From: Escherichia coli | GTDB lineage: Bacteria > Pseudomonadota > Gammaproteobacteria > Enterobacterales > Enterobacteriaceae | Direction: 5' to 3' (one strand) | Length of the DNA: 64,000 nt | Assembly: GCF_029227855.1 (NCBI RefSeq) | Contig: NZ_CP074356.1 | Shown here: positions 39,560-63,700 of the stretch, piece by piece | How positions within the stretch are numbered: position 1 is the first letter of the stretch | How the letters are laid out: each line of letters opens with the position of its first letter | The notes under the pieces: model-generated | The model's database searches: none | What the model was told of the DNA's origin: nothing | What the model saw: only the letters and a program-made list of their open reading frames with translations | Position numbers and translations under genes: made by a program

Positions 39560-39973
39560 ATGAGCGAAGCACTTAAAATTCTGAACAACATCCGTACTCT
39601 TCGTGCGCAGGCAAGAGAATGTACACTTGAAACGCTGGAAGAAATGCTGGAAAAATTAGAAGTTGTTGTTAACGAACGTCGCGAAGAAGAAAGCGCGGCT
39701 GCTGCTGAAGTTGAAGAGCGCACTCGTAAACTGCAGCAATATCGCGAAATGCTGATCGCTGACGGTATTGACCCGAACGAACTGCTGAATAGCCTTGCTG
39801 CCGTTAAATCTGGCACCAAAGCTAAACGTGCTCAGCGTCCGGCAAAATATAGCTACGTTGACGAAAACGGCGAAACTAAAACCTGGACTGGCCAGGGCCG
39901 TACTCCAGCTGTAATCAAAAAAGCAATGGATGAGCAAGGTAAATCCCTCGACGATTTCCTGATCAAGCAATAA
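39560..39973 (+). CDS. hns: nucleoid-associated protein H-NS
   Basis: 137 aa [44 protein letters not shown]...TWTGQGRTP...; AT-rich upstream region 38957-39559. Confidence 0.97.
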
Positions 39974-39996
39974 TCTTTTGTAGATTGCACTTGCTT

Positions 39997-40025
39997 AAAA
40001 ATCCCGCCATCGGCGGGATTTTTTA
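39997..40025 (+). terminator. hns terminator
   Basis: ATCCCGCC-ATC-GGCGGGAT hairpin followed by TTTTTT. Confidence 0.85.
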
Positions 40026-40062
40026 TTGTCCGGTTTAAGACAATTTAATAAGAATAAGCTAT

Positions 40063-40774
40063 AATAAATATCCTCCGGCATAGCCGGAGGTTTTTCAAAT
40101 GCGCCTATAAGGCTCTCTTACCAGCCGCGCCCTAACAGGCGCACACGATCTGACATTTGCATCCAACTTCGTTACTTACGGCCCGTAAACGGGCTGCCCG
40201 GATAGGGAATCGATAACTGCTCTCCCATTTTATCCTCTTCAAGCTGGTGCTTTATGTAATCCTGTATCTTCGCCGTGTTCTTACCCACCGTATCGACGTA
40301 GTACCCTCTGCACCAGAACTCCCTGTTCCTGTATTTGAATTTCAAATCACCAAACTGCTCGTAAAGCATCAGACTGCTTTTCCCTTTCAGATATCCCATA
40401 AAGCCGGATACGCTCATTTTGGGCGGGATCTCCACAAGCATATGGATATGATCTGCACAGCATTCAGCTTCCAGAATCCGTACACTTTTCCACTCACACA
40501 GCTTTCTCAAAATACTGCCTATTGCTCTACGCTTCTCTCTGTAGAACACCTGTCTTCGGTATTTTGGCGCAAAAACTATGTGATATTTACAGTTCCATCG
40601 GGTGTGCGCTAAGCTCTTTTCGTTCCCCATTGGGACCCCCTTTTGATTTCTTGTTTGACACTTGCAGTTGCCAGACCGCAAGGTGTTTTAACAAATCAAA
40701 AGGGGTTTTAATAACTGGCTTAAAGCTGAAAGCTTTCCGGAACCCCCAGCCTAGCTGGGGGTTTTCTGTGCACA
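40063..40774 (-). mobile_element. IS200 copy 1 (IS200/IS605 family), head-to-tail with copy 2
   Basis: About 712 bp unit with tnpA (HuH/Y1 transposase) and subterminal palindromes (CCTCCGGCATAGCCGGAGG at one end; CCCCCAGCCTAGCTGGGGG at the tnpA-proximal end). Boundaries are ambiguous by 1-3 nt. Confidence 0.85.
40172..40630 (-). CDS. tnpA: IS200 transposase TnpA (152 aa)
   Basis: Start refined to MGNEKSLAHTRWNCKYHIVFAPKYRR...; HxH motif (ADHIHMLVEIPP) and catalytic Tyr region (YIKHQ). Confidence 0.88.
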   Translation of the reverse strand: MGNEKSLAHTRWNCKYHIVFAPKYRRQVFYREKRRAIGSILRKLCEWKSVRILEAECCADHIHMLVEIPPKMSVSGFMGYLKGKSSLMLYEQFGDLKFKYRNREFWCRGYYVDTVGKNTAKIQDYIKHQLEEDKMGEQLSIPYPGSPFTGRK

Positions 40775-41487
40775 AATAAATATCCTCCGGCATAGCCGGA
40801 GGTTTTTCAAATGCGCCTATAAGGCTCTCTTACCAGCCGCGCCCTAACAGGCGCACACGATCTGACATTTGCATCCAACTTCGTTACTTACGGCCCGTAA
40901 ACGGGCTGCCCGGATAGGGAATCGATAACTGCTCTCCCATTTTATCCTCTTCAAGCTGGTGCTTTATGTAATCCTGTATCTTCGCCGTGTTCTTACCCAC
41001 TGTATCGACGTAGTACCCTCTGCACCAGAACTCCCTGTTCCTGTATTTGAATTTCAAATCACCAAACTGCTCGTAAAGCATCAGACTGCTTTTCCCTTTC
41101 AGATATCCCATAAACCCGGATACGCTCATTTTGGGCGGGATCTCCACAAGCATATGGATATGATCTGCACAGCATTCAGCTTCCAGAATCCGTACGCTTT
41201 TCCACTCACACAGCTTTCTCAAAATACTGCCTATTGCTCTACGCTTCTCTCTGTAGAACACCTGTCTTCGGTATTTTGGCGCAAAAACTATGTGATATTT
41301 ACAGTTCCATCGGGTGTGCGCTAAGCTCTTTTCGTTCCCCATTGGGACCCCCTTTTGATTTCTTGTTTGACACTTGCAGTTGCCAGACCGCAAAGTGTTT
41401 TAACAAATCAAAAGGGGTTTTAATAACTGGCTCAAAGCTGAAAGCTTTCCGGAACCCCCAGCCTAGCTGGGGGTTTTCTGTGCACAA
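40775..41487 (-). mobile_element. IS200 copy 2, directly abutting copy 1
   Basis: Second unit, same orientation, no spacer; differs from copy 1 at a handful of positions; ends at the A-run of the galU terminator. Confidence 0.85.
40884..41342 (-). CDS. tnpA: IS200 transposase TnpA (152 aa), copy 2
   Basis: Protein identical to copy 1 in the ORF track although the DNA differs at a few sites. Confidence 0.88.
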   Translation of the reverse strand: MGNEKSLAHTRWNCKYHIVFAPKYRRQVFYREKRRAIGSILRKLCEWKSVRILEAECCADHIHMLVEIPPKMSVSGFMGYLKGKSSLMLYEQFGDLKFKYRNREFWCRGYYVDTVGKNTAKIQDYIKHQLEEDKMGEQLSIPYPGSPFTGRK

Positions 41488-41516
41488 AAAAACGGCGTCG
41501 ATTGCTCAACGCCGTT
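41484..41516 (-). terminator. galU terminator
   Basis: On the minus strand AACGGCG..CGCCGTT hairpin followed by TTTTTTTT, just after the galU stop. Confidence 0.8.
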
Positions 41517-41540
41517 TCGTGGATAACACCGATACGGATG

Positions 41541-42449
41541 TTACTTCTTAATGCCCATCTCTTCTTCAAGCCAGGCTTTAAATTCCGTGCCAAGGGTGTT
41601 ATGACGAATACCGTATTCAACGAAGGCCTGCATGTAACCTAATTTATTACCGCAGTCATGGCTCTTCCCTTTCATATGATAGGCTTCCACCGTTTCTTTT
41701 TCGATCAGCATATCAATTGCGTCGGTGAGCTGAATTTCATCACCAGCTCCCGGAGGGGTTTTTGCCAGCAACGGCCAAATATCCGCGCTAAGTACGTAAC
41801 GACCCACAATAGCGAGATTAGACGGCGCAACATCCGCTTTCGGTTTTTCTACCACACCAACCATCGGTACGCTTTCACCCGGCGCTAATTCAACGCCTTT
41901 ACAATCCACAACGCCATATGCGGTAACATCAGCAACCGGTTCAACCATGATCTGGCTATGACCCGTTTCATCAAAGCGGCGGATCATCTCTGCCAGGTTA
42001 TCCTGTGACAAATCGGATTCATATTCATCCAGAATAACGTCAGGCAAAATAACAGCCACAGGTTCATCACCCACTACCGGGTGAGCACACAATACCGCAT
42101 GTCCCAGGCCTTTCGCCAGCCCCTGACGAACTTGCATAATAGTCACGTGCGGCGGACAAATAGACTGCACTTCATCAAGCAGTTGACGTTTTACACGTTT
42201 TTCCAGCATTGCTTCCAGTTCAAAACTGGTATCAAAGTGGTTTTCAATCGAGTTTTTAGATGAGTGAGTAACCAGCACAATTTCAGTAATGCCAGCCGCA
42301 ATACATTCATTCACGACGTATTGAATTAATGGCTTATCGACAAGTGGCAGCATCTCTTTCGGGATGGCTTTCGTCGCCGGCAACATCCTGGTTCCTAATC
42401 CCGCAACGGGGATAACGGCTTTTTTGACTTTCGTATTAATGGCAGCCAT
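41541..42449 (-). CDS. galU: UTP-glucose-1-phosphate uridylyltransferase
   Basis: 302 aa [35 protein letters not shown]... Confidence 0.95.
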
Positions 42450-46282: not shown

Positions 46283-46367
<85 letters not shown>

Positions 46368-46401
46368 TCTCAAGCATTACCTCAAAATTTGAATTACCCC
46401 T

Positions 46402-46486
<85 letters not shown>

Positions 46487-63553: not shown

Positions 63554-63700
63554 GGTGAAAACGGGCGTCAGGCTGCCGTGATGGCAATATGCGCCCGAAA
63601 CCGGCCGCAGGAGTAACAGCCTGCGGCCTTTTTTGTATCCGGCCCCATGAAAAAAGCCTTAACGCAGAACGCTAAGGCTTTAGTTTTCAAGCAAAAAAGA

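Follow-up and report, generated by a model that had tools for sequence, protein, structure and literature searches.

A head-to-tail tandem of two non-identical IS200C copies between hns and galU in Escherichia coli

The hns-galU locus

In the window, the 64,000-nucleotide stretch of E. coli DNA analysed here, two copies of the insertion sequence IS200C lie head to tail between hns and galU (40063–41485, Table 1). From hns to galU (39560–42449) the sequence was 100% identical to that of E. coli JNEC-KY178 (NZ_AP045174.1). Over 22.7 kb, the window and JNEC-KY178 differed by four SNPs and by one extra 119-nt tRNA-Tyr unit, and the dimer was identical in both. In JNEC-KY178 both transposase genes are annotated as “IS200/IS605-like element IS200C family transposase” (WP_000526135.1). 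The genome of this strain has about 24 IS200 copies.

Table 1 Features of the hns-galU locus, with positions in the window. Bases at the mismatches are given as copy 1/copy 2.
Feature	Position	Strand	Remarks
hns CDS	39560..39973	+	ORF; annotated hns in JNEC-KY178; left neighbour, convergent with galU
IS200C copy 1, 711 bp	40063..40773	-	Downstream, right-end-side copy in element orientation; - strand reads GTGCAC...TTATT; delimited by empty K-12 versus occupied site and by period-712 comparison
Right-end subterminal hairpin, copy 1	40072..40090	-	CCTCCGGCTATGCCGGAGG, then ATATTTATT; A5 run before; terminator-like in scan
tnpA, copy 1	40172..40630	-	152-aa Y1 (HUH) transposase; Pfam Y1_Tnp; WP_000526135.1
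Left end, copy 1	40640..40763	-	Terminator hairpin (40741–40763) and RBS-burying 5′UTR stem-loop; Rfam RF01405 (STnc490), 146 bits
Extra A between the copies	40774	.	T in element orientation; period 712, not 711
IS200C copy 2, 711 bp	40775..41485	-	Upstream, left-end-side copy; abuts the T-run of the galU terminator
Right-end hairpin, copy 2	40784..40802	-	With the tail ATATTTATTT makes the right-end/left-end junction
tnpA, copy 2	40884..41342	-	Protein identical to that of copy 1
Left end, copy 2	41352..41475	-	Terminator hairpin (41453–41475) and 5′UTR stem-loop; RF01405, 144.6 bits
Insertion target (galU intrinsic terminator)	41486..41514	-	CGGCGT..ACGCCG hairpin, then T7 (galU/IS orientation)
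galU CDS	41541..42449	-	ORF and annotation; right neighbour, same orientation as both tnpA
Mismatch 1	40289/41001		C/T
Mismatch 2	40403/41115		G/C
Mismatch 3	40484/41196		A/G
Mismatch 4	40682/41394		G/A
Mismatch 5	40721/41433		T/C

Anatomy of the element

The only substantial sense ORF of each 711-bp unit was tnpA, and tnpB was absent. The 152-aa TnpA matched Pfam Y1_Tnp with an E-value of 3.8e-38, covering positions 2–121 of the 121 in the profile. The element ends (GTGCAC... and ...TTATT) had no terminal inverted repeats, and subterminal hairpins were present at both. Directly 5′ of both hairpins there were A-runs: ..CAGAAAA precedes CCCCC at the left end, and ..TTGAAAAA precedes CCTCCGG at the right end.

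The left end of IS200 is described as carrying a terminator hairpin, a 5′UTR stem-loop that sequesters the RBS, and the art200/STnc490 region (PMC4513863). All were recognized in both copies, with full-length RF01405 matches scoring above the gathering score of 56 bits. A third STnc490 match (39990–40092) reached 25.6 bits, below the gathering score, and was dismissed as a hairpin resemblance. In both copies the predicted fold paired AAAAGGGGG with CCCCUUUUG, burying the Shine-Dalgarno sequence, and the predicted energies of the 5′UTR fold were −40.0 kcal/mol for copy 1 and −40.4 kcal/mol for copy 2.

Each core was 100% identical to many annotated IS200C records, and the PGAP annotation and sequence identity with hundreds of records support the assignment of the element to IS200C. 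The element is a textbook, already known IS200C, and only its arrangement is unusual. The intact ORF, the full Y1_Tnp domain, the intact ends and the intact predicted 5′UTR fold suggest that both copies are functional.

Differences between the two copies

The preliminary description of this DNA had stated that the two IS200 copies differ at a few nucleotides and yet encode the same TnpA. An exact comparison at period 712 (40063–40774 against 40775–41486) bore this out, giving five mismatches, zero gaps and 99.3% identity. All the variant strings quoted in that description were found, namely HRIDVVP/HCIDVVP, SHKAGYAH/SHKPGYAH and PYTFPL/PYAFPL in the antisense-frame translations, and ggcttaaagctg/ggctcaaagctg and gcaaggtg/gcaaagtg in the DNA. 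The span that had first drawn attention (40172–41342) is bounded by the stop codon of the first tnpA on one side and by the start codon of the second on the opposite side. The right-end hairpin sequence occurred exactly two times in the window, against zero expected, and the repeat is therefore far beyond chance.

The TnpA proteins were identical both as the 152-aa annotated forms and as the 169-aa ORFs starting from TTG. Every coding change was synonymous, as had been proposed, the three differences affecting the third base of codon 49 (AGT/AGC, Ser), codon 76 (GGC/GGG, Gly) and codon 114 (ACG/ACA, Thr). In the antisense 121-aa ORF, the same three differences are each non-synonymous, an argument against this ORF being a gene. 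The two non-coding differences, in the 5′UTR/left end (IS positions 53 and 92), left the predicted 5′UTR fold unaltered.

Under neutrality, three out of three synonymous changes have a probability of about 0.007 (Nei-Gojobori, with 88.7 synonymous and 367.3 non-synonymous sites), or about 0.013 once transition and transversion classes are allowed for. Between the two copies the tnpA count was three synonymous to zero non-synonymous differences. Against a divergent IS200 subfamily it was 18 synonymous to 4–5 non-synonymous, with a dN/dS of about 0.05, indicating that purifying selection acts strongly on TnpA throughout the family. The all-synonymous pattern is explained by this family-wide selection.

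Occurrence of the two sequences elsewhere

The sequence of copy 1 is the commonest IS200C sequence in E. coli: IS200C copies with 100% identity to its 709-nt core were present in more than 60 records, some of them ST131 chromosomes and plasmids. Copy 2 was rare: its core gave 100% matches in 14 records only, including CFT073, and recurred at a second locus of JNEC-KY178, yhcO-aaeB. All five variable sites were also polymorphic among IS200C copies elsewhere. Because the exact sequences of both copies are present elsewhere, they represent two pre-existing IS200C lineages, and none of the differences arose at hns-galU. As judged from these matches, the five differences are long-standing polymorphisms within the IS200C family. 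The earlier suggestion that the copies are genuinely separate, and no trivial duplicate, is supported by each of them exactly matching IS200C copies at other loci and in other strains.

Insertion sites of IS200C

In K-12 the hns-galU site is empty and reads, in galU orientation, terminator hairpin, T7 and ATAGC. Compared with it, the occupied site has 711 bp (GTGCAC...TTATT) exactly after the T7, without target duplication. Comparison of empty and occupied sites gave a similar result for a single insertion at ldr-kdsA, with 711 bp after T6 and no duplication. At each of the 12 loci examined, the left end directly followed the tail of an intrinsic terminator, seen as a GC-rich hairpin plus T5–7 or, at yfeX-yfeY, as TTATT. 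The right end of IS200C itself consists of a hairpin and then ATATTTATT, and is called terminator-like by a simple scan. At the family level, a 2025–26 preprint reports that terminator-like sequences are enriched upstream of IS200/IS605 elements, so the association with terminators is not new.

IS200 was found at hns-galU in 127 of 5,426 complete E. coli genomes, with one copy in 126 of them and two only in JNEC-KY178. None of the single-copy genomes carried at this site the exact sequence of copy 1 or copy 2. Residents with near-identical flanks read C-C-G-A-C, C-G-A-A-C and C-G-G-G-C at the five sites, and the commonest resident sequence (L003) was separated from copy 2 by one step and from copy 1 by four. 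For the flanking 22 kb, the collection contained no close relative besides JNEC-KY178, the next best having about 99.1% identity. The single-copy genomes at this site carry several mosaic sequences, and comparison with the nearest relatives did not single out one of the two copies as the resident.

Head-to-tail dimers across E. coli

We surveyed the 5,426 complete E. coli genomes for dimers, using full-length matches to a 101-nt probe that spans the right-end/left-end junction. The junction was found in 68 genomes (about 1.3%), and dimers were present at at least 11 loci. Ten further junctions that we examined were from ten different loci, all head to tail: nifJ-ompN, yodD-yedP, yddM-fdnI, ydcO-ydcL, a 50-kb plasmid, ldr-kdsA, yebQ-htpX, ymgL-icd, yfeX-yfeY and htpX-prc. 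With hns-galU counted, the copies were identical in six of the 11 dimers examined, and differed at 1, 2, 4, 5 and 29 positions in the remaining five. Beyond the right-end tip TTATT, the junctions had zero, one or two additional T. A single extra T was commonest, as at hns-galU, where the tip TTATT is followed by one T and the left end GTGCAC. This extra T needs an added assumption, for example a slipped cleavage register in the T-run.

The most divergent dimer, at ldr-kdsA, was present in three separate assemblies. It consists of an IS200C and a subfamily copy differing from it at 29 positions, both whole and unmixed. Its right-end-side copy is the same as the single IS200C of NMBU_W05E18, down to an unusual TTTTT tip, and lies between identical flanks. 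IS200C occupies ldr-kdsA in about 250 genomes. The divergent copy lies on the terminator side and had 100% matches at this locus only in the three dimer genomes. In this dimer the newcomer was inserted directly after the T-run, ahead of the resident's left end. The whole, unmixed copies further show that insertion of a foreign copy, and not duplication, can make a dimer.

The head-to-tail arrangement of IS200 is thus uncommon yet recurrent, and is explained by the known insertion chemistry of the family. Simple reuse of targets is supported by a rough estimate: with some ten copies in a genome, and a few hundred terminators that could serve as targets, a dimer frequency at the percent level would be expected. 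A search of the accessible literature gave no description of tandem or head-to-tail IS200 copies, which is not proof of novelty.

Origin of the tandem

Members of the IS200/IS605 family move as single-stranded DNA and insert 3′ of a short target, which is left intact. Because insertion leaves the target intact, an occupied target should be reusable. We consider it most probable, at roughly 60%, that the dimer was formed by a second IS200C lineage inserting directly at the already occupied target. One IS200C would first have resided after the T-run of the galU terminator. A second one, from elsewhere in the genome, would then have transposed onto the same target, and this repeat insertion would have joined the two copies right end to left end. 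If the mixed dimer at ldr-kdsA is taken as a guide, the newcomer was probably copy 2, on the terminator side, and its likely donor was the identical yhcO-aaeB copy of the same genome. The closeness of L003 to copy 2, taken alone, would make copy 2 the resident, opposite to the ldr-kdsA analogy. Order of arrival, donor and mechanism of target recognition are what we infer from these comparisons.

Alternatively, a resident IS200C may have been duplicated on the spot, for instance through insertion of a further copy of itself at the same target, with one of the two copies later overwritten by gene conversion, which the preliminary description had named as its second option. The identical copies in six of the 11 dimers would fit such a local doubling, and conversion among IS200 copies is demonstrable. 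In strain C1, the single ldr-kdsA element is a clear mosaic, with IS200C-like sequence over the ~160 nt nearest the right end and divergent-like sequence in the interior, and it has tip and flanks in common with the IS200C resident. Among hns-galU residents with near-identical flanks, the alleles at sites 40484 and 40682 occur in all four combinations. Together, the C1 mosaic and these combinations indicate that IS200 copies exchange sequence. The five differences of the tandem lie within 433 nt, a plausible conversion tract, and the genome contains a possible donor, e.g., the yhcO-aaeB copy. However, two events are needed, and the tract must cover all five sites to match an existing sequence exactly. 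The intermediate, a dimer of identical copies, was not seen at hns-galU in the 5,426 genomes, and heterodimers of very different, unmixed subfamily copies show that direct foreign insertion does occur. Local doubling followed by conversion is a realistic, though less probable, alternative origin. A Campbell-type homologous integration of a double-stranded IS circle was also considered and is disfavoured, because the ldr-kdsA copies are whole and unmixed.

With a dimer at hns-galU in only one of 5,426 genomes, the tandem could be suspected to be an assembly artefact, in which the repeat of one real IS200 was wrongly expanded. A spurious duplication should give identical copies, whereas these differ at five genuine population variants. 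Furthermore, the window and JNEC-KY178 are distinguishable by their SNPs and tRNA-Tyr units, yet share an identical dimer, and the same type of junction recurs across the 68 genomes and the other loci, with the ldr-kdsA heterodimer in three assemblies. An artefact is thus highly improbable. Exact tandem duplication followed by local point mutation, with selection against non-synonymous changes, would suit the three synonymous coding changes but was rejected as having next to no likelihood, because all five alleles and both complete sequences already exist at other loci and in other strains, so that five mutations would have had to recreate two existing sequences exactly, and because a divergence of 0.7% would imply great age for a dimer that is found in one genome lineage only.

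Implications for IS200 target choice

Long known and nearly dormant, the insertion sequence IS200 is rarely mobile in the laboratory, and its target choice has been hard to study for this reason. Silent differences between IS200 copies are to be expected, and finding them matters little of itself. The tandem is a real biological arrangement, which annotators and assemblers should not collapse. Because IS200C copies in E. coli exchange by gene conversion, the differences between them are no simple record of insertion times. The strict placement of left ends after terminator T-runs, together with the reuse of occupied sites, gives a testable picture of how IS200 chooses its targets.

A more far-reaching reading sees in IS200C a dedicated terminator-tail inserter, complete with guides, target mimicry, slippage and a reactive junction; taken as a whole, we find it doubtful. 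By analogy with IS608, the A-runs beside both hairpins may act as guides that would read the T-rich pentanucleotide TT(A/T)TT, and the right end of IS200C (hairpin plus TTATT) may mimic the target. A T-run would permit the cleavage register to slip, producing periods of 711, 712 and 713 bp. If this reading is true, head-to-tail dimers would be a regular product of reusing occupied targets. The dimer junction, like the excised-circle junction, might then be unusually reactive, promoting transposition or rearrangement.

Comparison with known systems

The two copies agree with the IS200 of Enterobacteriaceae (IS200C isoform; IS200/IS605 family, IS200 group) in their size of ~710 bp, the lone tnpA and the 152-aa Y1/HUH transposase. 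They also have the same lack of terminal inverted repeats and of target duplication, the same subterminal hairpins, and the same left-end terminator hairpin, RBS-sequestering stem-loop and STnc490/art200 region. The window differs in arrangement alone, with two non-identical copies directly head to tail.

Directly abutted copies are described for the (IS)2 tandem dimers of the copy-out-paste-in elements IS30, IS21 and IS911 (PMC9333248). These dimers share with the IS200C tandem the abutted copies and a junction resembling a transposition intermediate. They differ in having DDE transposases and inverted repeats joined into a reactive, promoter-forming junction, whereas IS200 has no inverted repeats and its Y1 transposase acts on single strands. 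Because its ends lack abutted inverted repeats and its transposase is of the Y1 and not the DDE type, the tandem does not qualify as a reactive dimer of the (IS)2 type.

IS608 and ISDra2 serve as the models of single-strand transposition by “peel and paste”. In IS608, an AAAG 5′ of the hairpin foot recognises the target/cleavage sequence TTAC, and the target stays intact beside the left end (PMC5027513). IS200C has the same end layout as IS608 and ISDra2: the short cleavage/target sequence 5′ of the left end remains part of the flank, the right-end tip consists of a similar sequence, and each subterminal hairpin has a short complementary run on its 5′ side. The A4–5 runs of IS200C face TT(A/T)TT, whereas the AAAG of IS608 faces TTAC. 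IS200C targets a T-run or TTATT, which in nearly all cases belongs to the tail of an intrinsic terminator, in contrast to TTAC or TTGAT for IS608/ISDra2, and, unlike these systems, the IS200C here is without tnpB. By analogy, IS200C would resemble IS608/ISDra2 in how its guides pair, in where it is cleaved and in its dependence on the lagging strand. The sequence layout of IS200C is consistent with a single-stranded circular intermediate on the lagging-strand template, and the right-end/left-end junction of the dimer has the form of the excised-circle junction.

Variation among IS200 residents

We compared the single IS200 copies resident at hns-galU in other genomes (L003, L008, L010, L009 and L011). 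Their sequence varied among strains with near-identical flanks. Of the five sites at which the copies of the dimer differ, two occurred in all four combinations of alleles when these residents were taken together. In two strains (L009 and L011) the right end had an additional T, so that the insertion was 712 bp instead of 711 bp.

The single IS200 of E. coli C1 (L020, NZ_CP010116.1), located at the ldr-kdsA site, was a mosaic when compared with L014 and L019. Counted from the right end, positions 1–156 matched IS200C and positions 192–557 a subfamily about 4% divergent, while the tip and flanks were those of the IS200C resident at ldr-kdsA. This mosaic is direct evidence for gene conversion between IS200 subfamilies.

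IS200 occupied the ldr-kdsA site in 259 other complete genomes, and a mixed-subfamily dimer did so in three. The site is a second IS200 hot spot within the window, besides hns-galU, and is not used here (Table).

Comparison with JNEC-KY178

The window carried the same IS200 dimer as the near-identical strain JNEC-KY178, despite four SNPs over 22.7 kb and a 119-nt difference in the tRNA-Tyr genes, of which the window had two in tandem and the JNEC-KY178 RefSeq record one. The window therefore comes from either a sister isolate or a different assembly.

Features within and around the IS200 copies

All three differences between the copies that fall in the ORF antisense to tnpA alter its amino acids (R/C, A/P and T/A), which argues against a coding gene. 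At the right end of copy 1, a promoter-like match had its -10 hexamer across the boundary between flank and element; it was not significant, since the region contained only a single match of this kind versus 2.2 expected. The weak STnc490 match extended across the terminator of hns as well as the right-end hairpin of copy 1, and is probably a mere resemblance of hairpin to hairpin.

Table Features in the window.
Feature	Position	Strand	Details
STnc490 match (Rfam)	39990-40092	-	Sub-threshold; 25.6 bits, E = 0.034
Promoter-like match	40037-40065	+	AAGACA-17 nt-TATAAT, 10/12; aimed into element, antisense to tnpA
Antisense ORF, copy 1	40247-40612	+	121 aa, open
Antisense ORF, copy 2	40959-41324	+	121 aa, open
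tRNA-Tyr genes	46283-46486
Insertion relative to JNEC-KY178	46370		119-nt unit
SNPs relative to JNEC-KY178	42886, 46584, 59162, 61699
ldr-kdsA terminator T-run	63645-63675		Without IS200; CATGG-T6-hairpin in IS orientation

Right-end tip and target

TTTTT replaced TTATT as the right-end tip in some IS200 copies, namely L014, L019 and L020 at ldr-kdsA and L016 at ymgL-icd, where the copy lies at the junction of a dimer. The flank adjoining the left end at yfeX-yfeY (L017) was TTATT, with no T-run. Together, these sequences suggest that position 3 of the cleavage/target pentanucleotide can be either A or T.
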